NCBI GenBank assembly: GCA_963779415.1
Contig: CAVZYA010000001.1
Span: 256,001-320,000 of the forward strand
From: an uncultured Acidobacteriota bacterium
GTDB taxonomy: Bacteria; Acidobacteriota; Thermoanaerobaculia; UBA5066
DNA length: 64,000 nucleotides
Direction: 5' to 3'
Numbering within the stretch: the first letter of the stretch is position 1; the number at the start of each line of letters is the position of its first letter. The notes beneath the pieces are model-generated. The model was not told the origin of the DNA. It saw only the letters and a list, made by a program, of their open reading frames with translations, and searched no databases. Position numbers and translations under genes: made by a program. Of this stretch, positions 8,144 through 54,538 are shown piece by piece.

Positions 8144-8293
8144 TCAGATGACCCGTCGCCCCTGGAGGAGCTGGATCAGAAGGACGACGACGGCGACGAC
8201 GAGCAGGATATGAATGAGGCCGCCCATCGAGTACGCGGTGATCATCCCGAGAGCCCAGAGGACCAGGAGGATCACGAAGATTGTCCAGAGCAT
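8144..8293 (-). CDS. lmo0937-family small membrane protein (copy 1)
   Basis: MLWTIFVILLVLWALGMITAYSMGGLIHILLVVAVVVLLIQLLQGRRVI*; AAGGAG RBS. Confidence 0.9.
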   Translation of the reverse strand: MLWTIFVILLVLWALGMITAYSMGGLIHILLVVAVVVLLIQLLQGRRVI

Positions 8294-8317
8294 GGTGTCT
8301 CCTTTCTCCCGTCCGAC

Positions 8318-8872
8318 TCAGCCAAGGAGATCGACGACGTTCTTGACGCCTTCGATCGAACGGGTCTTCTTGATCGCTTCCCTGGAGATATCGGGGTTGT
8401 CGAGCTTGCCGCGCAGGCTGACGACGCCGTCGACGACCTCGACCTCGATCTTGAGCGCGTTCGCGCCGATGTCGGTCAGAAGGATGGTTTTCACCTTCAG
8501 CTCGAGCGCGACGTTCTTCACCGAGGCTTCGCTGGCTTCCACGGTCCCTGCGGCGTTCCTGACGGTGACCTCGTTGTCGACCTTCTTGATCCCCTTGACC
8601 GAGAGGGCGACCTCATTCGCGAGCCCCTGGCTTGGCGTCCTGGCGACCTCACCCGTGAGGGTGGCGGTCTCTCCCGTGACAGAGACCGTGATTCCGAGGG
8701 CGTCGCTTCCGAGCTTGTCGATCAGCATCGACTTGACGGAGATGGCGCTGATCGTGTCGGAAAGCTCCGTCGACACCGGCTTGGCGTCGGGCGCGGCATT
8801 CGCGGGTGGTGCCGAGAGAAGCCATGTGAGGGAAAGGGCCGCCGAGATGATCGATACCGGGGTCTTGTTCAT
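8318..8872 (-). CDS. Dual BON-domain protein (OsmY-like)
   Basis: Signal peptide MNKTPVSIISAALSLTWLLSA; two BON repeats (SDTISAISVKSMLI...VKGIKKVDNEV; LKVKTILL...GVVSLRG...IEGVKNVVDLL). Confidence 0.88.
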   Translation of the reverse strand: MNKTPVSIISAALSLTWLLSAPPANAAPDAKPVSTELSDTISAISVKSMLIDKLGSDALGITVSVTGETATLTGEVARTPSQGLANEVALSVKGIKKVDNEVTVRNAAGTVEASEASVKNVALELKVKTILLTDIGANALKIEVEVVDGVVSLRGKLDNPDISREAIKKTRSIEGVKNVVDLLG

Positions 8873-8897
8873 GAAACGAGCCTCCGTCCCTCGACCG

Positions 8898-8913
8898 CGC
8901 AATTGCCCTGCCA
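8898..8913 (-). promoter_or_regulatory. sigma54 -24/-12 promoter (BON-lmo0937 operon)
   Basis: TGGCAGGGCAATTGCG, GG-N10-GC; predicted +1 about 15 nt before the ATG. Confidence 0.8.
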
Positions 8914-8974
8914 GCGTCGGCGGGCTCTCTCGAGCGCGTTGGACCGGTGGGAGAACGTTTACGCGCCTTTGGCG

Positions 8975-9008
8975 TGGAAATAGTTCCATCACACTTGAAA
9001 GAGGTGCT
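8975..9008. promoter_or_regulatory. Candidate bEBP enhancer (tandem dyads)
   Basis: TGGAAATAGTTCCA at 8975 and TGAAAGAGGTGCT at 8996, 21 bp apart; nearly identical to 47109-47142. Confidence 0.65.
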
Positions 9009-9200
9009 TCATGGAGCCAGCCCGTCACCGGGTCCACCTCGCACAAGCCGGGTTCGCGGACCTCTCCTTTCTCGAGAGTCCCCTTCGTTGCGCCGATGGT
9101 CTCCGGGCGAAGCGCGACGGCGGAGCTGGTACGCCACGTGCTAGGAGGAAAGAGATGAGCGAAAGATCGCCCGAGGGCTTCTCGGGCGCCGGAGGCCACG

Positions 9201-9940: not shown

Positions 9941-9956
9941 TGGCACGCCTCGTGCG
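9941..9956 (+). promoter_or_regulatory. sigma54 promoter
   Basis: TGGCACGCCTCGTGCG, identical to 54014-54029; upstream of the small ORF at 9988. Confidence 0.75.
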
Positions 9957-9987: not shown

Positions 9988-10068
9988 ATGAACCTCATCC
10001 TTTTGGTCGTCGTGTTGGTCCTTTTGTTCGGTGGCGGCGGCTACTACTGGAACAGCAGACGCGGATGA
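9988..10068 (+). CDS. Very small membrane protein (DUF3309-like, 26 aa)
   Basis: MNLILLVVVLVLLFGGGGYYWNSRRG*; AAGGAG RBS; sigma54 box upstream. Confidence 0.75.
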   Translation: MNLILLVVVLVLLFGGGGYYWNSRRG

Positions 10069-10204: not shown

Positions 10205-13200
10205 TCACCGCTTTGCGGCGAGCGCGTCGGGGGTCGGCCCGGAGCCGGAGGGCGCGGCCGCCGCCGCTCCCAGTACGATCCGGACCCGGTGTGTGCCGCC
10301 GCCGTCCAGGAGCGGGATCGCGGCGGGGTCGGCAGGCGCTCCGTCCAGCTCGGCGCTTGCGACTCCGCGGCCGCGGCGCTGGGGGTTCACGACCTCGATC
10401 GCGTAGTGCGTCTTTCCGAAGCGCCACTCGATGGAATAGGCCGGCCACGACGACGGGATGCACGGATTCAGGGTAAAGAAGGCCCCCCGGCGCGCGAGTC
10501 CGAGGATTTCCTCCAACGCCACGCGATACGCCCAGCCGGCCGAGCCGGTGTACCAGGACCAGCCTCCGCGCCCGCGGTGCGAGGGGTGGTCGTAGACGTC
10601 CCCCGCCATGGCGTAGGGCTCGGTCTTGTACTGGTCGACTTCGGCGGCGGTGCGCGAATGGTTGATCGGGTTGAGCATGTGGAAGAGCTCGACCGCCTCG
10701 TCGCCGCACCCGAGGCGCGCCAGAGCGAGGACGACCCACTGGGCCGCGTGCGTGTACTGGCCTCCGTTCTCGCGGACTCCGGGGAGGTAGCCCTTGATGT
10801 AGCCCGGGTCGAGGGCGGTCCGGTCGAACGGGGGTGAGAGGAGAAGGATGACCTGGGAAGTGCGGCGTACGAGCTGCGCGCGCACCGAGTCCATCGCACG
10901 ATCGGCGTGCTTTCGCGGCGCGGCGCCGGAGAGGACGGCCCAGGTTTGCGCCACCGAGTCGAGCTTTCCCTCGTCGTTCTGGGAGGAGCCGAGCGGCGTG
11001 CCGTCGTCGAAGTAGGCGCGCCGATACCACTCGCCGTCCCAGCTCTGCTCCAGCATCGCCCCGAGGCGCTCGCGCTCGGCACGGTAGCGGGCGACGCGGG
11101 GCGCGTCCCCCCGCCCCTCGCAGAACGGACCGAAGGCGCCGAGAACCGAGTGGAGGAGCCATCCGACGAAGACGCTCTCCCCGCGCCCCTCGGGTCCGAC
11201 CCTGTTGTAACCGTCGTTCCAGTCGCAGCTCCCGATGAGCGGCAGGCCGTGGGAGCCGGCGGTCAGCGCGCGGTCGATGGCCCTGAGGCCGTGCTCGAAC
11301 AGGGTGCCGGCCTCTGCCGATACGGCGGGCAGCCCGTAAGCCTCCGCTTCTCCGGGCGGGACGGGGGGCGACTGGAGGAACGGGATCCGTTCGTCGAGGA
11401 CGGCGGCATCTCCGGTCGCTTTCACGTACTCGGCGACCGCGTACGGGAGCCAGAGGAGGTCGTCCGAGCAGTGCGTCCGGATCCCCCGGCCGCACGAGGC
11501 GTCCCACCAATGCTGAACGTCGCCCTCCAGGAACTGGCGCGCCGCGGCCCTGAGGAGATGCGCGCGGGTGAGGTCGGGGCGTGTGAACATCAGCGCCATG
11601 ACGTCCTGGAGCTGGTCGCGGAATCCGTACGCCCCGCTCGACTGGTAGTAGCCGGAGCGCGCCCAGAGGCGGCAGGCGAGGTCCTGGTAGAGGAGCCACC
11701 GGTTCACCAGCAGGTCGAAGGAGTCGTCGGGGGTCGACACGCGCACGGCCCCGAGCGCCTCGTCCCAGAACGCCTCCACGGCGGCGAGCTCGGCCTCTGC
11801 CGCGACGATGCCGCTGGCGCCGCTGTAGCGCCGAAGGAGCGCGCGGGCCTCGTCCAGGTCGCGCCCCTCCCCGACGAGGAAGACGAGGCGCCGCGTCTCG
11901 CCGGGCAGGAGGTCCATGGCCACCTGCAGGGCCGCGCAGGGGTCGAGGCCGGCGCCGAAGCGGCCCGTGAGCCGCGGGCGCCGGAGAGCGGCCGCCCGTC
12001 GCAGCGAGCCATTCCGGCCCAGGAACTCCCGGCGGTCACCGGTGGCCGAGAGAAGCGCCTCGCCGGCGCCCGCGAACGCGACGCGGCCGCCGAAGACCTC
12101 GTTGTAGGGATTGCGCGCCAGGACCGCGCCCGTTTCGCCGTCGCGCTCGGTCACGACGAAGCGCGCCACGCCCGGTTTCGGGGGTCCGAGCGACCACTCG
12201 CTGTATGCGAAGAGGTTGAGACGACGGAGCCGATCCGATCGGTTCGTCAAGGTGAGGAGCGACAGCTTGACCGGCTCCTCCCGCGCCACGAAGACGGCCA
12301 GCTCCTGCGCGATGCCGTGCGTGACACTCTCCCACCGCGTCACGCCGGGCGCGTGGCGGACCACCCAGCGCGGCGAGCGCGGCGTCCGCCTGAGGGGCGC
12401 CGGCGTGGCGCTCCAGAAGGCGCCGGTTTCCTCGTCACGCAGAAGGATGGCCTCGGCGGTCGGATCGGTGACCGGGTCGTTCGCGAACGGAGTGAGGCGG
12501 TTCTCGCGGCTGTTCCCGTGCCAGGTGTGGGCCGCGCCCGATGTGGTGACGATGCTTCCGAATCCCGGGTTCGCGAGGACATTGACCCAGGGGAGCGGGG
12601 TCTCGCGGTCGCCCTCGAGGACGACGACGTACTCGCGACCGTCGCGCGTGAAGCCGCCCAGCCCGTTCTCCATGACGAGGGCCGGGGACTCGATCGGCGT
12701 CTCCGGCCCTTCCTCTTCCGGAGGCTCATCGGCGTGCCAGGCCGGGACCGGAAGGATGGGGTCCGGCTCCTGGCGGTCCAGCTGCTCCTCCAGCCCGCCG
12801 CGGTCGCCGGAGAGAACCGCACGGGCGGCCGTATTGAGGAGAAGCCGGTCGCCCTCCGGCATGGCGTCGCCCCGGAGGAGGAACACTCCCCCGGGCTTTC
12901 CCTTCCAGGCGCCCCAGGCGCCGCCGTCGACGAGCGCGAGGAGCTGCTCGTGCATCTCGTCGCGATAGCTCGCGGGGTGATCGTTCAGGATCACGGCGTC
13001 GGCTTGAATTCCCTTGAGGCGCCAGAGCTCCTGCGCCATCAGAACGTGCCGGACGAGCGGCAGGTCGTCCGGCTCGGTCACCCGGACGAGGACGATCGGC
13101 AGGTCGCCGGAGATGCCGTATGCCCAGAGGGCCGCCTGCCCGAGCGTGCTTCTCGCCAGCATCTCCCTTTCGGCGCGTAGCGAGCCGTCGGAGAAGAAGA

Positions 13201-16200
13201 CCCGGGAGCCGAGCCGCTCGAAGAGCTGGGCTTCCTCCACGGAGATTCCGAGGTGCCGGAGCGAGACCTGCGCGTGCGTGTAGGCCAGGGCGAACGTGCG
13301 GGCGGCGACGCCGGGGTCGTGATACTTCTGCGCCAGGGCGTGAGCGGCCGTCTCGTCCGCGGCCACGCCCGTCGCGAAGGAGAGACGGGCGAAAGCGCCG
13401 GGCGCGAGCCTGAGGCGCGTCCTCAGGCTGAGGATCGGGTCGAGCACGGCGCCCGTGGTGCCGGAGAGCGGACGCCCGTCGAGGGCGACGGGATCGTCGG
13501 GGCCGCGCCCCCGTCCCAGGAATCGCATCCGGTCGGTCTCCCACTCGACCGGTGCCTGCATCCGCCCGTCGATGGAGAGAACGTGAAAGGCGAAGAGCGC
13601 CGGGTCCGAGGCGCTCCGCGGACGGCGGCGAGCGAGAAGGGCCGAACTCTCCCGCAGCCACTCGGTCTCGATGAAGAGCTTCCCGAAGGCGGGTTGTGAG
13701 ACGTCTTCCGAGATGGACGCAAGGGCGATCTCGACGTAGCTCGTCAGCTCGATCTCGCGCGGCCGGTCGCTCCGATTCGTCACGGAGATCCGCCGCACCT
13801 CGGCGTCGTCCTCCGGCGAGACGGCGATTTCGAGGCGCGTCTCGATGCCGTGATCGCTTCGCTCGATCACGGCCTTCTCGGAGAGGAACTCCACGAGATA
13901 ATCTTCCGGCTCCTTGCCGACGGGCTGATAGGCCGCGGACCAGACCGCGCCGCCGTGGACGTCGCGCAGATAGACGAATTGACTCCCCGGGTCGCGAGTC
14001 GGGTCCTCGCGCCACCGCGTGACGGCGCGGTCCCGGCAGAAGCTCGCTCCGCCCCCCGAGTTCGTCACGATCGCGACATACGCGCCGTTCGACAGGATCT
14101 GCGCGCGCGGGTAGGGCGTGTGCGGGGAGCGGAGCCGGCGCGGGGCGCGAGCCAGCGTCGGGGCCACGTGGGTCTCCTCGGCGGGGCGCGGCTCGATGAC
14201 AGGAGCCTCGCGCGGCACCCGCTCCTGCAGGAGAAGCTCGGTCGCCTGGATCCTCGGGTCCGCGTGGAAACGGTCGACCATGACGTCGCCGAGAAGGACG
14301 TCCGCGACGGCGACGAGCGTCATCCCCTGGTGGTGCGCCAGGTAAGTCTTCACGATCACACCGGCGTCGGCACCCGCGCCGGGAGGCGCCGCGGGCGAGC
14401 CGCCGCCGTCGTGGGGCTTTCGGGGCGTGTAGTCGACGGCGTCGTAGTAGCCCAGCGGTCCCTCGGCGCCCTCGCGTGCCAGACGCCTCAGATTCCGCGC
14501 GGCCGCGGACGGATCGACCATCGCGGCGAGCGCGGTCGCGTAGGGCGCGATCACCAGCTCGTCGGCCAGGCCGCGCTTCAGCCCGAGGCCCGGAACGCCG
14601 AAGGCCTTGTACTGATAGCTCCCGAGCCGGTCGACGAGGTTGTAGGCCGACTCGGAGATGCCCCAGGGAACGCCGCGGCCGCGGGCGTACCGCCGCTGCC
14701 GCCGGACGACCATGCGATACGTCTGGTCGAGGAGAGTCCCGGGATACGTCCTCATCAGAAGGAGCGGCATCAGGTACTCGAACATCGACGCGCTCCACGA
14801 GACGAGAGTCGGGACGCCGTCCACGCTCACCACGAGCCGCCCGAGATGGAACCAGTGGCTCTGGGGCACGTCCCCCTTGGCAATGGCGAAGAAACTCGCG
14901 AGGCGCGCCTCCGACGCGAGGAGGTCGTAGTAGGAGCCGTCCAGCCGGCCGGGCCCTCCGGCATCGGCCAGCCGGTAGCCGATCGAGAAGAGCTGGCGTT
15001 CGCGGTCGTAGAGGAATGCGAAGCTCATTCCGTCGGCGAAGGAGAGAGCACGCCGGGCAAGATCGGAGAGGCGCTCTGCCAGCTCCGGTCGCGACGAGGC
15101 CAGCCGGCGGCACCCTTCGGACAGCGCGAGCAGCGCCCCCGCGAGGTTTCCGCTGTCGACCGTCGAGATGTAGCGGGGAGGGAGCGGCGAGAGGTCCCGC
15201 GTGTCGTACCAGTTCAAGAGGTGCCCCTCGTGCCGCTCCAGACCTTCGACGGTCGTCAGCGTCCGTTCCAGCCTCTCGAGCATGGCGTCTGGAGGCAGGA
15301 AGCCCAGATCGTGCGCCGCGAGCGTCGAAAGAAGACCCATCGCGATGTTGGTCGGCGAAGTCCGGTGCGCCACCACGCGGGCCGGCTCCTCCTGGAGGTT
15401 GTCGGGAGGGAGCCCGTGGTCCTCGGGGCCGGTCAGCGTCTCGAAATAGCGCCAGCTCTTCCGCGCGACCGCGAGGAGGAACTCGCGATCCCCGGGCGAC
15501 AGCTCGCGCCGCCGCGGTGCGGCCGGATGGCTGAGCCAGTAGGCAACGAAGGGCGCGATCGCCCAGAGAGCGCCGAACGGGAGAGCGAGGGGGAGCGCAC
15601 GGGGACGCGCCGCGGCGGTGAGAGCCACGAGAACGATGGCGGCGATCGGGTTTACGGCCATCTCCAGAAGGAACGAGCGGGCTCCCTCGCGAAGGAGGCC
15701 GGCCGCCCGTGCCGCCTGCGCGGCGGCGGTCTCCCAGTCCAGCAGGCGGCGCTGCGTGAAGACGAGCCTCACGAGCGTCAGCGCGATGGCATTCACCATC
15801 TCCCAGGCGTGGTACGGGAGAAAGACGAGCGTCAGGAAGGCCTGCGCCGAGGCCGTGCTCAGATCCTCGAGAAGGCCGCGCAGATGGACTCGGGCCGGCT
15901 CGTGCGCGGGGGGCCGCTTCAGCAGGTGAAAGAGAGAGGTGACGAGCGGAAGCGAGACGACCGAAAGACCGGCCAGGGTCCACGCGAGCGGGCTTCCGGG
16001 GAGGACGGTCCATGCGGCTCCGAAGAGAGCGAGGAGGGCGGGAGCCACGAGGCTTCGCCGGAGGTTGTCCAGGATCTTCCACTGGCTGATGAGCGGCAGG
16101 CGGTTCTTCGCGAAGCCGTCTCTCGTCGGGACGACGGGCAGAAGCCAGGCGAGGATCTGCCAGTCACCGCGCACCCAGCGGTGCTGTCGGCGGGCGTGGG

Positions 16201-18460: not shown

Positions 18461-18478
18461 CGGGAGCGCCTCCGAGCC

Positions 18479-21350: not shown

Positions 21351-21366
21351 AGCAAGGCCCGTGCCG
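21351..21366 (-). promoter_or_regulatory. sigma54 promoter (DUF883-DUF6600-cgs operon)
   Basis: CGGCACGGGCCTTGCT; dyad TGAAAACATGACA at 21439-21451 upstream. Confidence 0.8.
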
Positions 21367-21506
21367 CATCTCGGTCTCGGGATTCAGCTGCCAGGTTCTC
21401 CGTGTGCCCTATGGCATCCGGTTTCCCGGGCTCTGGTTTGAAAACATGACAAAGCGTCTGGAAAATCAGGGGATTTAGCGCCGCCCTGTCACGCCTGACA
21501 TTTCGA

Positions 21507-23800: not shown

Positions 23801-23816
23801 AGCAAGCGGGATGCCA
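23801..23816 (-). promoter_or_regulatory. sigma54 promoter
   Basis: TGGCATCCCGCTTGCT immediately upstream of the GGAGG RBS of the YXWGXW gene. Confidence 0.85.
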
Positions 23817-25168: not shown

Positions 25169-25184
25169 CGCAAGATCGCTGCCA
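25169..25184 (-). promoter_or_regulatory. sigma54 promoter
   Basis: TGGCAGCGATCTTGCG upstream of the AI-2E gene. Confidence 0.8.
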
Positions 25185-27042: not shown

Positions 27043-27058
27043 AGCAAGCAGCCTGCCA
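27043..27058 (-). promoter_or_regulatory. sigma54 promoter
   Basis: TGGCAGGCTGCTTGCT upstream of lmo0937 copy 2. Confidence 0.85.
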
Positions 27059-27131
27059 AAGCTCCGAACCGGCCGCGGACGGCGCTCCCGGCGCCTTTAC
27101 CCCCGGCGCGCTGCCAGAGTCGCCGTTCGAC

Positions 27132-27166
27132 AGTAAGGGTTTCCCGTCACACTTGAAAGAAATGCT
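27132..27166. promoter_or_regulatory. Candidate bEBP enhancer
   Basis: CCGTCACACTTGAAAGAAATGCT matches the motif at 8984-9008 and 47118-47142. Confidence 0.65.
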
Positions 27167-31160: not shown

Positions 31161-31176
31161 CGCAAGCCCTGTGCCA
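31161..31176 (-). promoter_or_regulatory. sigma54 promoter
   Basis: TGGCACAGGGCTTGCG. Confidence 0.85.
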
Positions 31177-31269: not shown

Positions 31270-31304
31270 TGTATCTCTTTCAAAGCGGGACGGAAGCGGT
31301 TGCA
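31270..31304. promoter_or_regulatory. Candidate bEBP enhancer (inverted orientation)
   Basis: TGTATCTCTTTCA at 31270 and CGGAAGCGGTTGCA at 31291; reverse complement reads TTCCGTCCCGCTTTGAAAGAGATACA. Confidence 0.55.
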
Positions 31305-31385
31305 AACGAGGCGAGCCGAGCGTCATGTGAGGTCGAAGGTCCGCGATTGCCTCGCTGGCGATTGGCAGCAGCCCGAAAGACGTCG

Positions 31386-41084: not shown

Positions 41085-41100
41085 CGCACGGGTTGTGCCA
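41085..41100 (-). promoter_or_regulatory. sigma54 promoter (PRC-zwf-HAD-xfp operon)
   Basis: TGGCACAACCCGTGCG. Confidence 0.75.
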
Positions 41101-41533: not shown

Positions 41534-41567
41534 TGTAGATCTTTCAACCGGGACAGAAGGGGCTGCA
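41534..41567. promoter_or_regulatory. Candidate bEBP enhancer between divergent sigma54 promoters
   Basis: TGTAGATCTTTCA at 41534 and CAGAAGGGGCTGCA at 41554; reverse complement reads TTCTGTCCCGGTTGAAAGATCTACA. Confidence 0.6.
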
Positions 41568-41640
41568 ACCGGGGCAGGCCGATGGACGCCAGTCATCGGA
41601 GCCGGCGCGTCCGAAGCCCTGGCCGGGCCCCTTCACGCCG

Positions 41641-41656
41641 TGGCAGGGGAATTGCG
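41641..41656 (+). promoter_or_regulatory. sigma54 promoter
   Basis: TGGCAGGGGAATTGCG; predicted +1 falls just before the GGAGGA RBS. Confidence 0.85.
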
Positions 41657-45908: not shown

Positions 45909-46600
45909 GCCGCCCGGTTCGCGAACGTGCGAAGCCCGAAGGCCACGCCAAGCGACAGCACCCCGAGCGCCCCGAAAAGCGGAACGTTGCTCGCCGTCTT
46001 CGGCAGCTGCTTCGGGGGACGGGCCTCTGCCACGACGGGGGGAGCCGGCTCCGGCGCCTTCTGAACCACCGGCGCCTGGTATGGCTTCACCTGCCGCTCC
46101 GGCGTCACGACTGCGAGAGGCACGGACTTGTACTCCGCTTCCTTCGCCTTGTCCGGAATCGCGATCACGGGCTGCTTGGCGACTACCGCAAGCTCCATGG
46201 CGCGCCCCTCGGGATAGACGATGTCCTCACCGTTCTCCGCGTTGCCGGCGAACCAGGTGCGAAGAGCCTTGGTCTGACCCGCGGCGGTCGGGTAATAGAC
46301 GAAGCGGCTCTCCGGGATCATCTCGTCCCTCTGGAGCAGGTGCGGAACGGCGAGGACGGTGGCGAAGACCGTCGTCCCCTCCACGTTCGAGACCTGAACG
46401 ATGTGCCGGCTTGGTTCCTGCAGCGTCAGTCTGATGAGGTACGTTCCCGGCTGCAGGGTGACGCTCCCCACCTCGAGCGGCTCCGTTATGGTGAAGGTCG
46501 AGTGCTCGATAGCGCTTTGTGCAGATGCCACGGGCGCCATTGCGACCCCGAGGAACGTCGCGAACGTTCCCAGGGCCAGACAGGTCATCAGCTTCTTCAT
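45905..46600 (-). CDS. Sortase substrate with LPXTG-like signal (LPKTAS)
   Basis: Signal peptide; Pro-rich linker; LPKTAS, then a hydrophobic helix and basic tail (RTFANR); GTGA overlap with the sortase. Confidence 0.88.
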   Translation of the reverse strand: MKKLMTCLALGTFATFLGVAMAPVASAQSAIEHSTFTITEPLEVGSVTLQPGTYLIRLTLQEPSRHIVQVSNVEGTTVFATVLAVPHLLQRDEMIPESRFVYYPTAAGQTKALRTWFAGNAENGEDIVYPEGRAMELAVVAKQPVIAIPDKAKEAEYKSVPLAVVTPERQVKPYQAPVVQKAPEPAPPVVAEARPPKQLPKTASNVPLFGALGVLSLGVAFGLRTFANRAA

Positions 46601-46692: not shown

Positions 46693-46842
46693 TCAGATCG
46701 CCCTTCGTCCCTGGAAGAGGTTGAACAGGAGGACTACGACGGCGACGACGAGCAGGACATGGATGACGCCGCCCATGGTGTAGGACGTGACCATTCCGAG
46801 AGCCCAGAGGACCAGGAGGATCACGAAGAGTGTCCAGAGCAT
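46693..46842 (-). CDS. lmo0937-family small membrane protein (copy 3)
   Basis: MLWTLFVILLVLWALGMVTSYTMGGVIHVLLVVAVVVLLFNLFQGRRAI*. Confidence 0.9.
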   Translation of the reverse strand: MLWTLFVILLVLWALGMVTSYTMGGVIHVLLVVAVVVLLFNLFQGRRAI

Positions 46843-46864
46843 GATGTCTCCTTTCTTCCGTCTT

Positions 46865-47005
46865 TCATTCCGGGCCGGGAGCGGCGGGGACGGACTCCCG
46901 CCGTGCCCGAAGTGGAACCGTTGGCTCTGCTGAGGAGGCCGACGCCGAGAGGAGCCCTGTGAGGAAGAGGGCTGCTGCGAGGATCGGGACTGAGTTCTTG
47001 TTGAT
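46865..47005 (-). pseudogene. Decayed N-terminal remnant of the BON protein paralog
   Basis: ATC-initiated frame INKNSVPILAAALFLTGLLSASASSAEP resembles MNKTPVSIISAALSLTWLLSAPPANAAP (8872) at the same distance from a homologous promoter. Confidence 0.6.
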
Positions 47006-47031
47006 GGTCTGAAGTCTCCGGCTGGGACGAC

Positions 47032-47047
47032 CGCAATGCCCCTGCCA
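47032..47047 (-). promoter_or_regulatory. sigma54 promoter (lmo0937-LPXTG-sortase operon)
   Basis: TGGCAGGGGCATTGCG. Confidence 0.85.
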
Positions 47048-47108
47048 GCGTTGGCGGGCTGTCTCGAGATCGTTGGCCCCGCGGGGAAGCTTTTTCGCGC
47101 CCGCGGCT

Positions 47109-47142
47109 TGAAAATAGTTCCGTCACACTTGAAAGAGGTGCT
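47109..47142. promoter_or_regulatory. Candidate bEBP enhancer (tandem dyads)
   Basis: TGAAAATAGTTCC at 47109 and TGAAAGAGGTGCT at 47130, 21 bp apart. Confidence 0.65.
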
Positions 47143-47309
47143 GGCCGGGCATTCCCGCCGGCGACACGGCCGCTCTACACGGACGTTGCCGTACGAGATC
47201 GTCATCCTTGGCGTCTACACGAATCGACGTCGGGGCCCGGCAAGGTCGCCCGGGCCACGACTTTGACTCAACTTCCGACCGGAGAGATGCTTCCGTCGTG
47301 GCCCCCCGA

Positions 47310-48996: not shown

Positions 48997-49425
48997 TCAA
49001 GCCGAGGCGAGATCGTCGAGAAGCTTCGAAAGCGTGGCGACATGCTGCCGCTGACGTGGCACCAGCTCGTGCTCCACGAGATCGTGCGCCTCGCCGTCGA
49101 GCGATGGCAGCGCGGCTTCGTACTCGGCGAGGCCGCGCTCCTCGGCCTCGAGAAGCTGCCGAACGGAGACGGCGTCGCGAAGGATGGCGAAAGAGCCCCA
49201 GGTGCCCGCCTCGGCGGCCGCGACCCCTCCGAGGGCCCGAATGCAGACCTGCAAAGCCGCCACAGTCCGCTGGTGCCCGGCAGCGAACCCGAGGACTTGG
49301 ACGGAGTCGTCTCCAAGCCTGCCGTTCAGCGAACGGACGGCGTGTTGGTAGGCGCGGACCGCGGCAATCTCCGCCCGGAGAAATGCGTTGAGGCGCTCGG
49401 TCGATCGCGCGTCCGGGGGGATCAT
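48997..49425 (-). CDS. Ferritin-like (DUF2383/PA2169-like) protein (copy 1)
   Basis: LNAFLRAEIAAVRAY...H...LEAEERGLAEY...QRQH; TGATG overlap with the upstream gene. Confidence 0.75.
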   Translation of the reverse strand: MIPPDARSTERLNAFLRAEIAAVRAYQHAVRSLNGRLGDDSVQVLGFAAGHQRTVAALQVCIRALGGVAAAEAGTWGSFAILRDAVSVRQLLEAEERGLAEYEAALPSLDGEAHDLVEHELVPRQRQHVATLSKLLDDLASA

Positions 49426-49697
49426 CAGCGGCGCCTGAACAGGTGGACGACCGCGACGAAGAGGGCGGACCCGATGACCGACCAGAGAACCGGGAAGGCC
49501 TGCCCCGCGACATGGAGCACGATCGGCTCCGGGAGCTTCATCTGGCGTGCGATCCAGGAGCCGAGGAGCGCGCCGATGAACCCGAGGACGATCGAGACGA
49601 GGCACCCGCCTCGAGTGCCGCCCGCAATGGAGCTCCCGATGGCGCCGCAGATCGCGGCGATGATGATCAGAAGAAGGATTTGAGGTATGGAAATCAT
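49425..49697 (-). CDS. GlsB/YeaQ/YmgE stress-response membrane protein
   Basis: GGCLVSIVLGFIGALLGSWI...WSVIGSALFV. Confidence 0.9.
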   Translation of the reverse strand: MISIPQILLLIIIAAICGAIGSSIAGGTRGGCLVSIVLGFIGALLGSWIARQMKLPEPIVLHVAGQAFPVLWSVIGSALFVAVVHLFRRR

Positions 49698-49709: not shown

Positions 49710-49725
49710 AGCATTTCGGATGCCA
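49710..49725 (-). promoter_or_regulatory. sigma54 promoter
   Basis: TGGCATCCGAAATGCT; dyad-like TGGACGCTTTTCA at 49800-49812. Confidence 0.75.
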
Positions 49726-49833: not shown

Positions 49834-50535
49834 TCATTTCTCGTCGACGGGCCTGCGCGACGAGATCAGGTTCGGGTAGGCGCTGCCGAAGAATTTGAAG
49901 AGTTCCTCGACCTTCGCGTCCTCCCCCTGCCGCCATCCGACGTCGCGGAAGCGGTACTCCTCGCTCTTCGTCTTCACGACCCACTCGAAGCACTCGTTTC
50001 CTCCGGACTTTTTGAGGCAGGTGAGCTGCTGCTCGGTCATCTGCACAGCCGGAATGAGGAGGTTCTTCCCCGCATCCCTGGAGTCCATCCAGCGAAGCGA
50101 CGCATCCTTGAACTCGAGGACCCCGGCGTCCCACCGGCCCTTGAACATGACGAGCCCGGAGTTCCTGCGCGTAAGGCCGTCCCATCGGCGGGAGGCACCG
50201 GGGCCGGGAGTCGTTTGCGCCAAGGTCGCGGCCGCTTCGGTTTCCGCTCGCCGATGGGTAATCGACGTGATGAGGGTCTCGGGGACGCCGGCGTTCCGGA
50301 GTCGCACGACGTCTGCGGCCGTCAGGTCCCGGGCGAGATCCGAGCGGGAGACGTACTTGTCGATGAACTCCTCGGAGAGGTTGGCTCTCCAGAGCTTGAT
50401 GATGTCCTCGACCAGGACGGAGTTCGCCGAGGGCGCCACCGCCGTGGTGGGGGGGTCCTCCGGTTCCGCCGCGATCCGGACGGCTACTTCTGACGTCGCC
50501 GCCACGAGAGCGAGGGCTACAACGAGCATCTTCAT
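49834..50535 (-). CDS. Secreted hypothetical protein
   Basis: Signal peptide; DIIKLWRANLSEEFI...LTAADVVRLRNAGVPETLI helical motif; GGAGG RBS. Confidence 0.75.
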   Translation of the reverse strand: MKMLVVALALVAATSEVAVRIAAEPEDPPTTAVAPSANSVLVEDIIKLWRANLSEEFIDKYVSRSDLARDLTAADVVRLRNAGVPETLITSITHRRAETEAAATLAQTTPGPGASRRWDGLTRRNSGLVMFKGRWDAGVLEFKDASLRWMDSRDAGKNLLIPAVQMTEQQLTCLKKSGGNECFEWVVKTKSEEYRFRDVGWRQGEDAKVEELFKFFGSAYPNLISSRRPVDEK

Positions 50536-50567: not shown

Positions 50568-50583
50568 CGCAAGGATCGGGCCC
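50568..50583 (-). promoter_or_regulatory. sigma54 promoter
   Basis: GGGCCCGATCCTTGCG, GG-N10-GC with TTGC. Confidence 0.6.
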
Positions 50584-50649: not shown

Positions 50650-50853
50650 CTACTTGCTGATGGCCTTACCGATATTCGTAAAGACCTTGCCGACTTTGTC
50701 GTACGCCTTGCTGAGCCCCTCCTCGACCGCACCCTGGGCGCGTTGAAGGGAACCCTCATGCTCCATCTTCTTGTTGCCGGAGAGGATCCCGACGGCCTCT
50801 TTCACCTTCCCCTTGGCTTTCTTCACTTTTCCGCTGACTTCCTGCTTTCTCAT
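50650..50853 (-). CDS. csbD: CsbD-family stress protein
   Basis: VSGKVKKAKGKVKEAVGILSGNKKMEHEG; AAGGAG RBS. Confidence 0.9.
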   Translation of the reverse strand: MRKQEVSGKVKKAKGKVKEAVGILSGNKKMEHEGSLQRAQGAVEEGLSKAYDKVGKVFTNIGKAISK

Positions 50854-50884: not shown

Positions 50885-50900
50885 TGCACGTGGCATGCCA
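50885..50900 (-). promoter_or_regulatory. sigma54 promoter (csbD)
   Basis: TGGCATGCCACGTGCA. Confidence 0.75.
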
Positions 50901-50922: not shown

Positions 50923-50938
50923 CGGCACGGGAGTTGCG
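50923..50938 (+). promoter_or_regulatory. sigma54 promoter (DUF883 copy 2)
   Basis: CGGCACGGGAGTTGCG. Confidence 0.8.
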
Positions 50939-50964: not shown

Positions 50965-51249
50965 ATGGACAGCACCAGAACCCAGACCCCGCCTCGCGCA
51001 CGAGAAGCCGACATCGCCGGAGCGAAGGCTCACCTGAAGGAAAGCTGGGAACACGGGAGGGAGGCGGCTCACGGTGCTCAGCGGATTGCGCGGGAGAGCT
51101 GGAACGACCTCTACCGGAATGTCGATGAGTACGTCGAGTCCCGTCCGAAGACGGTCGCGCTCTGGGCGCTCGGCGCAGGCCTGGCGGTGGGTTTCCTCAC
51201 CGGCCTCCTCGTGAGCCGCGGCGTTCGCTCTCCATCCGAAGCGGCCTGA
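50965..51249 (+). CDS. DUF883/ElaB-YqjD-like protein (copy 2)
   Basis: HLKESWEHGREA...VDEYVESRPKTVALWALGAGLAVGFL; paralog of 21047-21319. Confidence 0.85.
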   Translation: MDSTRTQTPPRAREADIAGAKAHLKESWEHGREAAHGAQRIARESWNDLYRNVDEYVESRPKTVALWALGAGLAVGFLTGLLVSRGVRSPSEAA

Positions 51250-51271: not shown

Positions 51272-51287
51272 TGGCACGGCTCCTGCG
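51272..51287 (+). promoter_or_regulatory. sigma54 promoter
   Basis: TGGCACGGCTCCTGCG. Confidence 0.75.
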
Positions 51288-51311
51288 GGCACGAAACAGG
51301 AGATGACCGAC

Positions 51312-51746
51312 ATGATTAATCGCAAACTCGCCGTACTGTCCTCCGCCGGGTTCCTCGCGATAGCGACGGCCTGTGGCCCATCGCCCGACACCACCGTGAA
51401 GAAGTCGGAGTCGACGACTCAGACATCGGAGGGAACCGTCAAGACCGCCACAGAGAGCAAGCAGGTCGGGACGACTCTCGAAGCGAAGAAAGAGACGACG
51501 GCCGAAACGACGGCCGGCACCGTCAAGGCGACGACCGAGACGACCGTCGGAACGGTCACCGCTTTCACGGCCGGCAAGAAGATCGAAGTGATGACCGGCG
51601 AGAAGAAGATGCACTCGTTCAGCCTCGACGACAAGAACATCGTCTATTCCATCGACCACGCGGTGGCCGTGGGCCAGCGCGTCACGGTGACCGACGAGAC
51701 CGGTACCGACAAGGTCCGTCACATTACCGTGAAGCCGTCGGCGTAA
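51312..51746 (+). CDS. Thr-rich lipoprotein
   Basis: Lipobox-like IATAC; Thr/Glu-rich repeats; AGGAG RBS spacing favours ATG 51312 over 51303. Confidence 0.8.
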   Translation: MINRKLAVLSSAGFLAIATACGPSPDTTVKKSESTTQTSEGTVKTATESKQVGTTLEAKKETTAETTAGTVKATTETTVGTVTAFTAGKKIEVMTGEKKMHSFSLDDKNIVYSIDHAVAVGQRVTVTDETGTDKVRHITVKPSA

Positions 51747-51863: not shown

Positions 51864-51897
51864 TGAAAAACCTGCGATCAGTCGTGAAGAAGTTTCA
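51864..51897. promoter_or_regulatory. Candidate bEBP enhancer pair in a convergent intergenic region
   Basis: TGAAAAACCTGCG at 51864 and palindromic TGAAGAAGTTTCA at 51885, 21 bp apart. Confidence 0.45.
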
Positions 51898-51904
51898 AGG
51901 GCGC

Positions 51905-53287
51905 CTACGGCTCGAGCTGGTAATCCCTGAGCTTGTTGTAGATCGTCTTCAGGCTGACGCCGAGAATCTCGGCCGCCACGCGCTTGTCCCCCTTGACGGC
52001 GAGAAGTGTCGCCGTGAGGACTTTCTTCTCGACGGCCTGCAGGGTGTCGCCGACGCGGACGGGGACCGCGGGCCAGGCCTCCTCGTCCCCCGCGACCGGG
52101 CGGATCTCGGCGGAGCCCGAGTCCGTGAGGACCGCCTCCGCCGCCTCGGCCTGGATGGCGGGCGGGTCGCTCAGGACGTACGCGCGATGAACGGCGTTCT
52201 TCAGCTCGCGCACGTTCCCGGGCCAATCGTGACCGGTGAGCGCCCCGAGCGCCGCCCCTTCGAAGGAATTGAAGCCACGCCGCTCCTTCTCCTCGATCTG
52301 CGAGAGGAAGTGAGACGCCAGCAGGGGAATGTCCTCTTTCCGCTCCCGGAGGGGCGGGAGGCGAAGAGGAAAGACGTTGAGCCGATAGAAGAGATCGGCC
52401 CGGAACGTCTCTTTGCGTACCGCTTCGGCGAGGTCCCGGTTGGAGCTCGCCACGAGCCGGATGTCCATGTCCAGCTCTTCGCTCCCGCCCACGCGCCGGA
52501 AGGTGCGGGTCTCGAGAACGCGGAGGAACTTCACCTGGAGGTCCGGCGGCATCTCCGTCACCTCGTCGAGGAAGAGCGTCCCCCCGTGGGCCATCTCGAA
52601 GGTCCCGGCGCGGCGCCGGTCGGCACCGGTGAACGCCCCCTTCTCGTGTCCGAAAAGCTCGCTCTCGACGAGAGTCGGCGAGATCGCCCCGCAGTTGACG
52701 GCGATGAACGGCTGTTTCGCGCGACGAGACAGGAGATGGACGGTCGAGGCCGCGACTTCTTTCCCGGACCCGCTCTCCCCGGTGATCATCACGGGCGCAT
52801 TCGAACGGGCCACCCGGGTCAGGAGACGGAAGACCTCCAGCATCGGGGCGGAGCGGCCGACCATCCCGGCAAGGCCTCCGGCCACGGCGGGATCGGGGAG
52901 CGGGGCAGGGAGGAGAGCGCGCGCCTCGTCGTGCCGTTCCGAGAGCTGTGAGAGCGCTGTCGCGAGCTGGGCTGTCTTGAGAGGCTTCAGGAGGAAGTCG
53001 TGGGCGCCCGCCTTCATCGCTTCGACGGCCGACCGGATCGAGCCCTTGCCGGTCAGGACGAGGACGTCGCATTCGCGCCCTGCGGCCTTCGCGGCGCGGA
53101 CGACGTCGAGGCCGTCCCCGTCCGGGAGCCCGAGATCGGTGATGCAGACGTCCGGCACGCTCCGGGCGATTGCCGCTCCGGCCTCGGCGACGGAGTCCGC
53201 GGAGGAGGCTTCGTACCCCAGCTCTTTGACCAGCTCGACGAGCGCCTCGCGCGAGCCGGGCTCGTCTTCGACGACGAGGACGTTCAT
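51905..53287 (-). CDS. sigma54-dependent response regulator (REC-AAA+-Fis HTH, NtrC/AtoC family)
   Basis: VVEDE...TDLGLPD REC; GESGSGKE; GHEKGAFTGA; FLDEV; DLFYRLNVF; WPGNVREL; AAEILGVSLKTIYNKL. Confidence 0.96.
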   Translation of the reverse strand: MNVLVVEDEPGSREALVELVKELGYEASSADSVAEAGAAIARSVPDVCITDLGLPDGDGLDVVRAAKAAGRECDVLVLTGKGSIRSAVEAMKAGAHDFLLKPLKTAQLATALSQLSERHDEARALLPAPLPDPAVAGGLAGMVGRSAPMLEVFRLLTRVARSNAPVMITGESGSGKEVAASTVHLLSRRAKQPFIAVNCGAISPTLVESELFGHEKGAFTGADRRRAGTFEMAHGGTLFLDEVTEMPPDLQVKFLRVLETRTFRRVGGSEELDMDIRLVASSNRDLAEAVRKETFRADLFYRLNVFPLRLPPLRERKEDIPLLASHFLSQIEEKERRGFNSFEGAALGALTGHDWPGNVRELKNAVHRAYVLSDPPAIQAEAAEAVLTDSGSAEIRPVAGDEEAWPAVPVRVGDTLQAVEKKVLTATLLAVKGDKRVAAEILGVSLKTIYNKLRDYQLEP

Positions 53288-53949
53288 CCCGATGCTCCTG
53301 TCTCGGCCGCAGGCACCGGCCGCGGCCAGGAGAGAAGCGCGACGATTCCCCCCTCCGGCCCGGCGAGCTGGAGGCATCCCCCGTCGGATTCGATGCACGC
53401 GCGGGCTACGAAGAGATCCTCGGCGCGCTCGTCGCCGCGCGGCAGTTGGAAGAGCCGCTCGGGATTCGCCGTGACGCTCCCGCCGAGGGCCTCCATCCGG
53501 AGGGAGACCCTTCCGGGGGCGGCTCCCGCGCTTGCCCGCGGCAGCGTCCCCGAAGATTCGGGTGACCGGAGGAACGACACCACGATCCGCAGGGCGTCGA
53601 TGGTCGCGAGACGCTTGAGGAGAAGGGGTTTACGGGACGCCGAATCCTCCTCGAGGGAGATCCCTGCGGCTCGGCAGAGATCGCCGATCGACGTCTCCGA
53701 GGGCGCCTCTCCGACAATGCTCGCGAGACGCGGCAGGAGGTCGATGAGCCGGCCGGCGGCGGCGAGGTCGCCCTTCGCGCCGCGGAGGCGGTCCGCCAGC
53801 GGCGTTCCTTCGGATGGAATCGCCGCGAGGCGACGCTCGAGGAGTTCCAGCTTCAGCCCCGCTGCCGACAGAGGGTCGGCAAGGGCATGACGGAGCGTTC
53901 CGAGCGCAGCCGCCAGTCCGCCCGGCAGGTCAGGCGCAAGCACTTCCAT
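53284..53949 (-). CDS. Histidine-kinase-like protein with intact H-box and degenerate ATP-binding domain (ChpT-like phosphotransferase candidate)
   Basis: LRHALADPLSAAGLKLELL H-box; N and G boxes unrecognisable; ATGA overlap with the bEBP gene; start uncertain. Confidence 0.65.
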   Translation of the reverse strand: MEVLAPDLPGGLAAALGTLRHALADPLSAAGLKLELLERRLAAIPSEGTPLADRLRGAKGDLAAAGRLIDLLPRLASIVGEAPSETSIGDLCRAAGISLEEDSASRKPLLLKRLATIDALRIVVSFLRSPESSGTLPRASAGAAPGRVSLRMEALGGSVTANPERLFQLPRGDERAEDLFVARACIESDGGCLQLAGPEGGIVALLSWPRPVPAAETGASG

Positions 53950-54013
53950 CACTTTTTCTCGAAACGAAGCATCGACCCTTCGAAGGCGATCGTCAACAGA
54001 GGGGTTCTCGAGG

Positions 54014-54029
54014 TGGCACGCCTCGTGCG
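54014..54029 (+). promoter_or_regulatory. sigma54 promoter
   Basis: TGGCACGCCTCGTGCG. Confidence 0.75.
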
Positions 54030-54097
54030 TTCGAATGGCTCGAGAGGGACCCCTTGAGAGCTTCATCGATTCAACCGCAGAACTCGGGAGAGAGGGG

Positions 54098-54538
54098 ATG
54101 AACGACCACCTGGACGTGCGCCCCCCTGTGGACGGGACCCACGGTCTCAACGCACTCCTCAGGGGCGAGCTCGCCGCGGTCAACGCCTACCAACGCGCGC
54201 TCCGGACGGCCGAGGGCCGCATCCCCGTGGACGCCGCGGAGATTCTCCGTTTCGCCTCGGAGCACCAGAGGACGGTGGCGGCGCTGCAGGTTGCCGTCCG
54301 GGAGATGGGCGGCGTACCGGCGAGCGAGAAGGGAACGTGGGGAGCCTTCGCGCTCCTCCGCGACACGGCTTCGGTCCGCGAGCTTCTCGAAGGAGAGGAA
54401 GCGGGCCTCCTGATGTACGAGGCGGCGAACGGGATCCTCGAGGGCGACGCCCGCGATCTGGTGACGCTCGAGCTGATCCCGCGGCAACGCAAGCACATCG
54501 CCGAGCTCTCGGCGATCATCTCGCGGCTCTCGGCGTGA
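54098..54538 (+). CDS. Ferritin-like (DUF2383-like) protein (copy 2)
   Basis: LNALLRGELAAVNAY...SEHQR...LEGEEAGLLMYE...QRKH; paralog of 48997-49425. Confidence 0.8.
   Translation: MNDHLDVRPPVDGTHGLNALLRGELAAVNAYQRALRTAEGRIPVDAAEILRFASEHQRTVAALQVAVREMGGVPASEKGTWGAFALLRDTASVRELLEGEEAGLLMYEAANGILEGDARDLVTLELIPRQRKHIAELSAIISRLSA

Follow-up and report, generated by a model that had tools for sequence, protein, structure and literature searches.

General-stress regulators are known for Proteobacteria (RpoS, EcfG) and Firmicutes (SigB), and to our knowledge essentially none is known for the Acidobacteriota, among the most abundant of the soil phyla. A 64-kb stretch of an uncultured acidobacterial genome (the window, G000:C1:256001-320000, counted here from its first nucleotide) raises the question of whether sigma-54 could fill this role. 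The genome comprises 4.36 Mb in 3 contigs with 68% G+C. An initial annotation of the window listed 17 boxes of the -24/-12 type used by sigma-54 between positions 8144 and 54538, many of them ahead of genes for small proteins of stress-associated families, and proposed a general stress response wired to sigma-54 and clustered with its own regulators. Sequence comparison confirms that this 46-kb island is a real, conserved, and unusually dense cluster of about 15 predicted sigma-54 promoters. We put the probability that it is an activator-driven, sigma-54-dependent stress and envelope-protection island at roughly 0.6, a reading which suggests that this lineage runs a general-stress-like program via sigma-54 and not via the usual stress sigma factors.

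A dense cluster of sigma-54 promoters

Boxes were searched with the sigma-54 motif TGGCAC-N5-TTGC (TGGCACNNNNNTTGC), with near-consensus meaning at most 1 mismatch, and window counts were compared to those in 100 dinucleotide-preserving shuffles. The window contains 14 near-consensus boxes, compared to 2.18 ± 1.51 in shuffled sequence; the highest shuffle count was 7, and 0/100 shuffles reached 14. Across the whole genome, 79 sites match at ≤1 mismatch when GG and GC are fixed, and 14 of the 79 lie inside the 64-kb window, which represents 1.5% of the genome (binomial P, 1.1e-11). Of the 20-kb bins along contig C1, the three over the island contain 5, 5, and 4 sites, and every other bin contains at most 3. 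Both comparisons bear out the enrichment implied by the 17-box claim. None of the 14 near-consensus boxes lies in the flanks (1-8143 and 54539-64000), in agreement with the initial remark that flank genes lack them.

The boxes carry GG and GC dinucleotides exactly 10 nt apart, as expected for the sigma-54 class, and the informative columns in an alignment of 15 sites are T-GGCA and TGC. Downstream of 12 of the 14 near-consensus boxes, at a distance of 16 to 92 nt, stand a Shine-Dalgarno sequence, a start codon, and a coding-type open reading frame (ORF), so their placement on the correct strand shortly upstream of genes held up as well. The exceptions are 23552(-), within the gene for a WXXGXW-repeat protein, and 47033(-), which is followed first by a decayed BON copy. 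Thirteen of the 17 sites listed initially are at ≤1 mismatch (8899, 9941, 21352, 23802, 25170, 27044, 31162, 41086, 41641, 47033, 50923, 51272, and 54014; minus-strand coordinates in that list were 1 nt too low). Two others, 49711 and 50886, have 2 mismatches each, stand ~15 to 30 nt ahead of a ribosome-binding site and start codon, and are kept in relatives. In all, 15 of the 17 listed sites are convincing, 50569 is weak but kept in the related genome G003, and 41388 (TGGTAT..GATGC) was rejected, with 3 mismatches and no gene shortly downstream. The site at 23552(-), missing from the list at 1 mismatch, is probably a chance match.

Conservation was assessed in 58 to 60 kb around the activator orthologue from five genomes: G003, of the same genus; G012, G013, and G017, of other genera of the family; and G022, of another family of the order. 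The syntenic 60 kb of G003, whose activator is 88% identical, contains 17 boxes at ≤1 mismatch, of which 13 stand ahead of a gene, and includes boxes orthologous to the promoters of the ferritin-like, lipoprotein, both ElaB-like, DUF6600, small-membrane, DUF5670, WXXGXW, and tiny-peptide genes. Genomes G012, G013, and G017 (activators 80 to 84% identical) retain boxes at CsbD, ElaB-like, two ferritin-like, and DUF5670 genes. When the window and these four relatives were aligned, the 16-mer of the 50923 box (CGGCACGGGAGTTGCG) was unchanged in four of five genomes, G003 differing at one spacer base, and TGGCACG-N4-CGTGC ahead of the ferritin-like gene was unchanged in all five. The noncoding flanks of these conserved boxes diverge, with length shifts of ~50 nt. 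Pairwise alignments of G000 and G003 revealed kept -24/-12 elements with diverged flanks at five further promoters. Upstream of orthologues in the four relatives, the -24/-12 elements are invariant or nearly so, and the activator is flanked by boxes in all 5 genomes. In G022, which has a 54%-identical activator homologue, 0 boxes at ≤1 mismatch were present in the 58 kb fetched.

Could the boxes be chance matches, or remnants of repeats without promoter function? At ≤2 mismatches the motif is no commoner in the window than in shuffled sequence (52 sites versus 40.4 ± 6.8, with 7/100 shuffles at 52 or more), and promoters 8899, 27044, and 47033 (the last with repeat families D3 and D6) lie within duplicated DUF5670 cassettes. 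Enrichment at ≤1 mismatch but not at ≤2 places the signal in near-consensus sites, the count of which no shuffle matched. Placement before start codons is fixed, 13 promoters lie outside any repeat family, and conservation within diverged flanks in four other genomes effectively refutes this explanation, leaving it a vanishingly small probability.

For candidates outside the window, a position weight matrix was built from the window sites. At 14 bits it matched 38 sites in the genome, 15 of them within the window, a share that is circular because the matrix derives from these same sites; the matrix served solely to list candidates elsewhere. Its column-reversed version matched 110 sites at 14 bits, and has another dinucleotide makeup that disqualifies it as a null. 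The rarity of the real matrix next to the reversed one could reflect avoidance of stray sigma-54 sites, in a control that ignores dinucleotide content.

Genes behind the boxes

Genes were called by third-position G+C and named by Pfam and NCBIfam, with starts checked; 39 were called within 8144-54538, and 43 window proteins were put through the Pfam domain scan. Common strand and short gaps group 36 of the 39 genes into ~13 putative transcription units, and the three genes outside these units are two kinase genes and the activator gene.

Close to the activator, two boxes stand back to back, 22 nt apart. The first (TGGCATGCCACGTGC, 50886..50900, minus strand) precedes CsbD (50650-50853; Pfam, 1.1e-12) and is kept in all four relatives, G003, G012, G013, and G017, and the second (CGGCACGGGAGTTGC, 50923..50937, plus strand) precedes an ElaB/DUF883-like gene of 94 aa (50965-51249). 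Further along the plus strand, TGGCACGGCTCCTGC (51272..51286), identical in G003, lies ahead of a 147-aa putative lipoprotein (51303-51746), and TGGCACGCCTCGTGC (54014..54028) lies ahead of a ferritin-like DUF2383 protein (54098-54538). On the minus strand, the weak sigma-54-like box GGGCCCGATCCTTGC (50569..50583; GGGCCC..CTTGC, 2 mismatches), kept in G003 and not in G012, is followed by an exported 233-aa protein (49834-50535), which may be read from the CsbD promoter instead. A GlsB/YeaQ gene (49425-49697; Pfam Transgly_assoc, 5.6e-7) follows the minus-strand box TGGCATCCGAAATGC (49711..49725, 2 mismatches); G003 retains TGGCATCCGGCGTGC at this point, and G012, G013, and G017 have no box here.

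Three units contain DUF5670. The box TGGCAGGGCAATTGC (8899..8913, minus strand) has 1 mismatch and an ATG 26 nt downstream, and leads into BON (8318-8872; Pfam, 4e-20) and DUF5670 (8144-8293; Pfam, 1e-15). Its paralogue TGGCAGGGGCATTGC (47033..47047, minus strand) precedes a decayed 5' BON remnant, DUF5670 (46693-46842), an LPXTG-like protein (45905-46600), a sortase (45216-45908), and an AsmA-like protein (43823-45211). Promoter 47033 and its first 110 nt duplicate BON promoter 8899 at 82% identity (family D6; regions compared, 46843-47142 and 8873-9008); in this copy the BON ATG has become ATC, and the signal-peptide-encoding part alone survives before DUF5670. The sortase in the 45216-46600 region is class D-like and lies beside a 231-aa protein that matches the LPXTG anchor weakly (E, 0.01), a pair that sits in a Gram-negative-type phylum and within a putative sigma-54 transcription unit. 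The third unit, behind TGGCAGGCTGCTTGC (27044..27058, minus strand; kept in G003, G017, and G013), contains DUF5670 (26802-26951) and a B12-binding radical SAM protein (25205-26719).

Several boxes lead into longer gene series. The minus-strand box CGGCACGGGCCTTGC (21352..21366), kept in G003, stands ahead of a 90-aa ElaB/DUF883-like gene (21047-21319), after which come a DUF6600 protein (18479-21007) and a cyclic beta-1,2-glucan synthase (10205-18460). Common strand and short gaps would make these a single operon; in G012, G013, and G017 a separate box stands directly before the glucan synthase. A second DUF6600 gene (41679-42914), followed by YihY/BrkB (42961-43845), lies behind the plus-strand box TGGCAGGGGAATTGC (41641..41655), also kept in G003. 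Both DUF6600 genes contain in-frame tandem repeats (D1 and D2; 18587-19414 and 42490-42848), nine copies of a 69-nt unit in one and ~eleven copies of a 21- to 24-nt unit in the other. The perfect consensus box TGGCACAGGGCTTGC (31162..31176, minus strand; kept in G003) precedes a 72-aa membrane protein (30894-31112), a coiled-coil protein (30291-30818), and a YHS protein (30009-30278), and the same operon would extend to a 38-aa peptide and an MgtA-type P-type ATPase (27178-29721). The box TGGCACAACCCGTGC (41086..41100, minus strand), in place of which G003 carries AGGCACGACTCGTGC, precedes a double PRC-barrel protein (40194-41021). Readthrough from it may take in the genes for G6PD and a HAD hydrolase, then phosphoketolase (35468-37840) and a STAS protein, and finally an H+-type P-ATPase (32299-34911) and DUF1207 (31386-32396), although the 80- to 130-nt gaps past the PRC gene could hold other promoters.

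Of the remaining boxes, TGGCATCCCGCTTGC (23802..23816, minus strand; kept in G003) lies ahead of the WXXGXW-repeat protein (23345-23776), with a 442-aa gene (21989-23317) and a 166-aa gene (21507-22007) downstream. The minus-strand box TGGCAGCGATCTTGC (25170..25184) lies ahead of an AI-2E family transporter (23852-25141) and is not kept at the same position in G003, where the transporter follows another gene with a box. On the plus strand, TGGCACGCCTCGTGC recurs at 9941..9955 ahead of a 26-aa membrane peptide (9988-10068) that is DUF3309-like below the cutoff (E, 6.7e-4); this box and the tiny peptide recur in G003 and at locus L009.

The families scoring above Pfam or NCBIfam cutoffs are BON, CsbD, Transgly_assoc (GlsB/YeaQ), PRC, DUF5670 (lmo0937 family), and YihY/BrkB, and Pfam also confirms the GH94 cyclic glucan synthase. 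BON/OsmY, CsbD, DUF883/ElaB-like, Transgly_assoc, ferritin-like, and PRC proteins belong to RpoS, SigB, or EcfG regulons, and the above-cutoff families constitute the kind of small multistress protectant cargo expected of a general stress regulon. The island contains the genome's sole CsbD, its sole Transgly_assoc, 2 of 3 PRC domain matches, and 3 of 4 DUF5670 copies. The fourth DUF5670 lies on contig C2, beside the genome's best-scoring BON match and a 62-aa ORF, in a minicluster (C2:5573-6540; L128:1572-2537) that lies behind the 2-mismatch box TGGCCGCCGAATTGC. An exported 166-aa protein is encoded on the same contig behind a 1-mismatch box at C2:13593(-). The island thus offers a set of apparently coregulated genes of obscure function (DUF5670, DUF6600, WXXGXW, and ElaB-like), for which shared control suggests a shared role in envelope protection or osmoprotection.

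The same cargo could be read as a dedicated envelope and osmoadaptation program, or a dormancy or biofilm program, that deploys the small "stress" proteins as parts of the envelope in response to a single condition. Most products would be membrane, periplasmic, or surface proteins (glucan synthase, sortase with its LPXTG-like substrate, AsmA-like, DUF1207, BON, and the ion pumps), and Francke et al. proposed sigma-54 as a controller of the bacterial exterior, in PMC3162934, a text with 0 occurrences of Acidobacteri-, osmotic, or CsbD. We regard this narrower program as improbable: CsbD, ferritin-like, PRC-barrel, and phosphoketolase/G6PD proteins are cytoplasmic and typical of multistress regulons, and the activator subfamily is found elsewhere beside genes for SOD, DJ-1, hemerythrin, KGG, and DUF892 proteins.

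Several features lie near the island or share its type of box. The last sigma-54 unit is followed immediately, on the other strand, by a boxless gene for a Kup-type K+ uptake transporter (54551-56452), the function of which would suit osmoadaptation. Farther into the flank, ORF 58003-59364 has an MbnB/TglH/ChrH (DUF692) RiPP-modification domain at residues 180 to 439; its N-terminal part contains direct repeats (D9, 58245-58358) and might be a separate precursor peptide gene. At locus L127, elsewhere on contig C1, a dsrAB-like pair with NIR_SIR domains has a sigma-54-like box 121 nt upstream (CGGCACAGGGGTTGC, C1:712700, minus strand), and aprB/aprA-like genes have one 149 nt upstream (TGGCACATGGATTGC, C1:715869, plus strand). 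Dissimilatory sulfur metabolism of this acidobacterium may also be sigma-54 dependent.

Activator, kinases, and an upstream element

Transcription from sigma-54 promoters requires an AAA+ activator to remodel the closed complex, and without one they stay silent. The genome encodes a single rpoN (C1:443751-444224; Sigma54_DBD, 218.7 bits), ~125 kb from the island, and no sigma factor domain was found among the 43 window proteins scanned by Pfam. Sigma54_activat has 28 matches in the genome, ~22 of them full length. One of these lies inside the island on the minus strand (51905-53287), where the initial annotation had placed an activator with a GAFTGA motif, and it is complete: a receiver domain (Response_reg, 2.2e-24), an AAA+ domain with GAFTGA and lid (Sigma54_activat, 2.4e-68), and HTH_8 (4.2e-8), with GAFTGA at residue 254 of the long ORF. 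It falls under every named NCBIfam equivalog cutoff considered (NtrC, AtoC, ZraR, PEP-CTERM response regulator, LuxO, FlbD, NtrX, and PspF), the best scores being 389.6 against 558.6 for NtrC, 377.7 against 714 for AtoC, and 341.8 against 760 for ZraR. By these domains and scores it is an NtrC-family bacterial enhancer-binding protein that is a member of no named subfamily. Orthologues within the same family are 80 to 91% identical; the unpublished genome G024 was counted in this tally alone. The public contigs closest to the gene are labeled as Acidobacteriota metagenome-assembled genomes (MAGs) at 88%, 86%, and 73% identity and a Thermoanaerobaculia MAG at 77%.

Upstream of the activator, and overlapping its start by 4 nt, a minus-strand ORF (53284..53952) encodes a 222-aa kinase-like protein with an H-box-like LRHALADPLS. 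It gave no match in Pfam, NCBIfam, or PDB sequence searches; clusters of language-model look-alikes carry HisKA or HATPase_c in part, which is a lead only. This protein is a probable minimal histidine kinase, and its ORF lies upstream of the activator in G003, G012, G013, and G017 too. None of the genomes compared has a sigma-54 box before the kinase-activator operon. All 5 have TTGACG-N17-GATnCT there (TTGACG-N17-GATGCT at 53968..53996 on the minus strand of the window), which resembles a sigma-70-type promoter. A conserved ATCGACCC..CGTCAAC block upstream of the ferritin-like gene had been considered as an activator-binding site; because the block better fits the TTGACG-N17-GATnCT promoter of the divergent kinase-activator operon, that reading was given up. 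The second candidate sensor is a hybrid histidine kinase (47208-48971, plus strand; REC-HisKA-HATPase-REC), again without a sigma-54 box. Its orthologues adjoin the same genes in G003, G012, and G017, likewise without a box, and it is 34 to 39% identical to hybrid kinases beside activator homologues in Burkholderiales.

Which promoters could this activator serve? Raw 8-mer counting of the upstream regions returned GC-rich words only. Background-corrected counting returned TCTTTCAA in 5 of 15 upstream regions, and of its 29 genomic copies the 5 in the window all lie ~90 to 115 nt upstream of a box, while 23 of the 24 outside the window are nowhere near one. The word extends to a bipartite element, TTTCMA-N14-16-YTNCNN, with hexamers about two helical turns apart, which is present 78 to 107 nt upstream at six promoters (8899, 21352, 27044, 31162 in inverted orientation, 41641, and 47033). 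On the minus strand these are TTTCAA-N14-TTTCCA (8975..9000, ~90 nt upstream of box 8899), TTTCCA-N15-TTTCAA (21438..21464, kept almost base for base in G003), TTTCAA-N16-CTTACT(G) (27131..27158, ~100 nt upstream of box 27044, with the G003 orthologue 100 nt from its box), and TTTCAA-N15-TTTCAA (47108..47134, upstream of box 47033). On the plus strand they are the inverted TTTCAA-N16-TTGCAA (31278..31305, ~100 nt upstream of 31162 and partly kept in G003) and TTTCAA-N15-CTGCAA (41542..41568, 100 nt upstream of box 41641 and kept in G003). A TCGARGRCG-like word, seen by eye upstream of the ferritin-like, PRC, and tiny-peptide promoters, was dropped since it is not kept in the orthologous regions.

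The relaxed pattern has 25 matches in the genome, 7 of them in the window, comprising the six elements and one spurious match inside GlsB. All 7 window copies are near a box, compared to 0 of the 18 outside copies. The pattern was derived from window sites, which makes the relatives a fairer test. In their 298 kb, not used to define the pattern, there are 4 matches, each upstream of a box: one at 148 nt and three at 98 to 100 nt, two of these three preceding the G012 and G017 glucan synthase genes. The position of the element fits an activator-binding site, with an IHF-like or other protein as the alternative occupant.

Two or more separate sigma-54 regulons lying side by side, each with its own activator and signal, would also account for this pattern. 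The in-island activator would then control the CsbD, ElaB-like, lipoprotein, and ferritin-like genes alone, and another of the ~22 activators in the genome would control the TGGCAG-type, TTTCAA-bearing promoters (BON, DUF5670, DUF6600, glucan synthase, and the small membrane protein). In five of the six element-bearing promoters the box does read TGGCAG or CGGCAC, with TTGC at -12, several element-less promoters take the form TGGCACG-N4-CGTGC, and only the activator-adjacent core is conserved with the activator in G012, G013, and G017. Both classes are nevertheless physically linked to the activator in all five genomes, with the element-bearing glucan synthase promoter <10 kb from it in G012 and G017, and the same activator subfamily lies across phyla beside BON, DUF5670, and CsbD genes. 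Separate regulons are the less likely arrangement, the strongest of the competing explanations and still an unlikely one.

For the single, activator-driven island that we favor, we infer that most if not all promoters are paired with the in-island activator. The signal, a stress that is most likely osmotic or due to desiccation or stationary phase, would reach the 222-aa kinase-like protein, the neighboring hybrid kinase, or both; the nature of the signal and the kinase that acts are parts of the model. The kinase-activator operon would be read from its sigma-70-type promoter, and the receiver domain of the NtrC-type activator (51905-53287) would be phosphorylated. The activator would then assemble at upstream sites, hydrolyze ATP, and open sigma-54 promoters via its GAFTGA loop. 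The predicted output consists of small membrane and periplasmic protectants (BON/OsmY, CsbD, GlsB, DUF5670, DUF3309-like, ElaB-like, PRC-barrel, and ferritin-like proteins) together with cyclic beta-1,2-glucan synthesis and the P-type ATPases for Mg2+ and H+; the phosphoketolase/G6PD block probably belongs to it as well. In such a sigma-54 solution a two-component phosphorelay, not sigma factor competition, would make the decision, and promoters would stay silent until ATP-driven opening.

Distribution and comparison with known systems

Homologues of the activator extend well beyond this phylum. Nineteen were tested, from Betaproteobacteria, Deltaproteobacteria and Myxococcota MAGs, Eisenbacteria, Vicinamibacterales, Planctomycetota, Brocadiaceae, and Gammaproteobacteria, with 40 to 48% identity. 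The island activator is the best match in this genome for 18 of the 19, by 60 to 120 bits, a margin over the best match on another contig, as one alignment per contig leaves the second-best C1 match unseen. These homologues are probable orthologues.

The neighborhoods of this activator subfamily were surveyed at loci L010-L081 with G+C ≥0.6, where 106 ORFs lie behind boxes at ≤1 mismatch; 102 were scanned, the other four being alternative starts of the same genes. The 102 box-following genes include BON (8), CsbD (6), PRC (4), DUF3309 (3), DUF5670 (3), KGG (3), topoisomerase IB (3), two each of Transgly_assoc, DUF1328, DUF378, and hemerythrin, and one each of DUF892, DUF883_C, SOD, DJ-1, and AI-2E, counts that describe this subfamily's neighborhoods alone and so do not give the specificity of the cargo association. 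In 12 surveyed loci a second rpoN lies behind its own sigma-54 box. Probable activator orthologues in Achromobacter, Bordetella, Burkholderia, Aromatoleum, and other Burkholderiales adjoin this second rpoN and a hybrid kinase. In the fully annotated locus of Achromobacter kerstersii (L030:3535-17721), for example, genes for a hybrid kinase, the activator, and small proteins are accompanied by an rpoN with a box of its own and by CsbD, topoisomerase IB, DUF3309, and a universal stress protein.

These loci raise the possibility that the island is the acidobacterial form of an old multiphylum module, and that the module also accounts for the little-understood second rpoN (rpoN2) found in Achromobacter, Bordetella, Burkholderia, and Aromatoleum. 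An NtrC-type response regulator, orthologous throughout, may act in it together with sigma-54 and directly switch on BON, CsbD, PRC, DUF3309, DUF5670, GlsB, KGG, and YciE/F genes. We advance the proposal tentatively, judging it somewhat more apt to fail than to hold. If true, lineages without RpoS, SigB, or EcfG would rely on the module for their general stress response. The link to other phyla makes it testable in culturable bacteria and provides a concrete hypothesis for the betaproteobacterial rpoN2 paralogues.

Besides the missing excess at two mismatches, a number of observations weigh against an activator-driven stress island. The upstream element is present at 6 of 16 promoters and missing from the other ten, including the four nearest to the activator (CsbD, ElaB-like, lipoprotein, and ferritin-like), for which no common element was found; there are thus at least two promoter classes. 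With ~22 activators in the genome, this one is tied to the promoters only by position and co-conservation. Within the Acidobacteriota, DUF5670 occurs in 43 of 151 sampled genomes, and a box (≤1 mismatch, ≤250 nt upstream) stands at 4 of 29 DUF5670 loci of other members, compared to 1 of 29 in the opposite-strand control; the 29 include L107 and L116 from the unpublished genomes G019 and G078, L116 being one of the four positives. By this count the sigma-54 wiring is restricted within the phylum, not phylum-wide. Operon extents, including the long ones at 31386-41021 and 10205-21319, follow from gene arrangement, and scans of 8000-56500 for terminators and sigma-70 consensus gave no more than shuffles did, so operons are not delimited by them. 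As to the cargo, the families claimed initially were confirmed by Pfam for CsbD, BON, GlsB/YeaQ, YihY, PRC, and glucan synthase, whereas DUF883 is weak (E, 0.16 for one copy and no match for the other) and the ferritin-like protein falls below threshold (DUF2383, 27.7 bits against a cutoff of 30.8), as does DUF3309. The word "stress" draws on family names, mostly of the DUF type with little biochemistry, and we infer from them both stress induction of the island genes and the label "general." Among sequencing runs matched to this sequence, only DNA runs with small shares of it turned up, and no RNA run. The proposal of a general stress response wired to sigma-54 thus stands for its promoters, rpoN, activator, kinases, and cargo, while the stress response itself and a single driver are its predicted parts.

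The initial annotation also regarded the architecture as undescribed for this kind of organism. Among open-access papers and preprints we found none that reports CsbD, BON, or PRC-type genes grouped into a sigma-54 regulon, whether in Acidobacteria or in other bacteria, and none that presents the betaproteobacterial rpoN2 clusters as a regulon for stress. The arrangement nevertheless has more company than was assumed at first: probable activator orthologues in other phyla sit in similar sigma-54 stress clusters, and a small sigma-54 "general stress response" operon is listed for Desulfovibrio vulgaris (PMC4641369).

Among known systems, the phage shock response offers one likeness. PspF is a dedicated AAA+ activator of sigma-54-dependent, envelope-protective genes under stress, read from a sigma-70-type promoter beside its targets; it has no receiver domain, is restrained by PspA, and serves one or two operons. 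The island would share with it a dedicated AAA+ activator, envelope-protective sigma-54 genes, an activator beside its targets, and a sigma-70-type promoter. It differs in having a response regulator as activator (scoring 283.6 bits, below the PspF equivalog cutoff of 443.55), with ~13 putative units and RpoS-type protectant cargo. In Borrelia burgdorferi, sigma-54 drives rpoS and RpoS drives the regulon. There an NtrC-type activator and sigma-54 head an adaptation and stress program, Rrp2-RpoN-RpoS (PMC12472547 and PMC11784157). Here boxes lie directly before effector genes, and no sigma factor gene follows any window box; a sigma-54 promoter leading to a second sigma factor gene was absent for all 43 window proteins. 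PspF is cited in PMC4641369, where Desulfovibrio vulgaris Hildenborough DVU3305, like the island activator a response regulator, is assigned to sigma-54-dependent operons labeled "General stress response, transmembrane transport." That system comprises two adjacent operons and was compared by description, CsbD and BON having 0 occurrences each in the same paper.

The rpoN2 clusters of Achromobacter, Bordetella, Burkholderia, and Aromatoleum/Azoarcus offer another likeness, with probable activator orthologues 43 to 48% identical, an adjacent hybrid kinase, and sigma-54 boxes ahead of CsbD, BON, DUF3309, DUF892, and PRC genes. They have their own second rpoN, whereas a single rpoN lies 125 kb off here. 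A Burkholderia pseudomallei rpoN2 mutant has lower katE expression (PMC4745423), and Azoarcus rpoN2 has an RpoN motif in front and is induced in N2-fixing growth (PMC3916325). In cargo, the island matches the RpoS, SigB, and EcfG regulons, with the same families as Escherichia coli osmY, yjbJ, elaB, yciEF, and yeaQ/ymgE, Bacillus csbD, and the alphaproteobacterial PhyR-NepR-EcfG system. Those regulons use sigma-70-family factors governed by partner switching or proteolysis, in contrast to the -24/-12 promoters and ATP-driven activation predicted here, and their genes are scattered, whereas those of this acidobacterium are packed in a single island.

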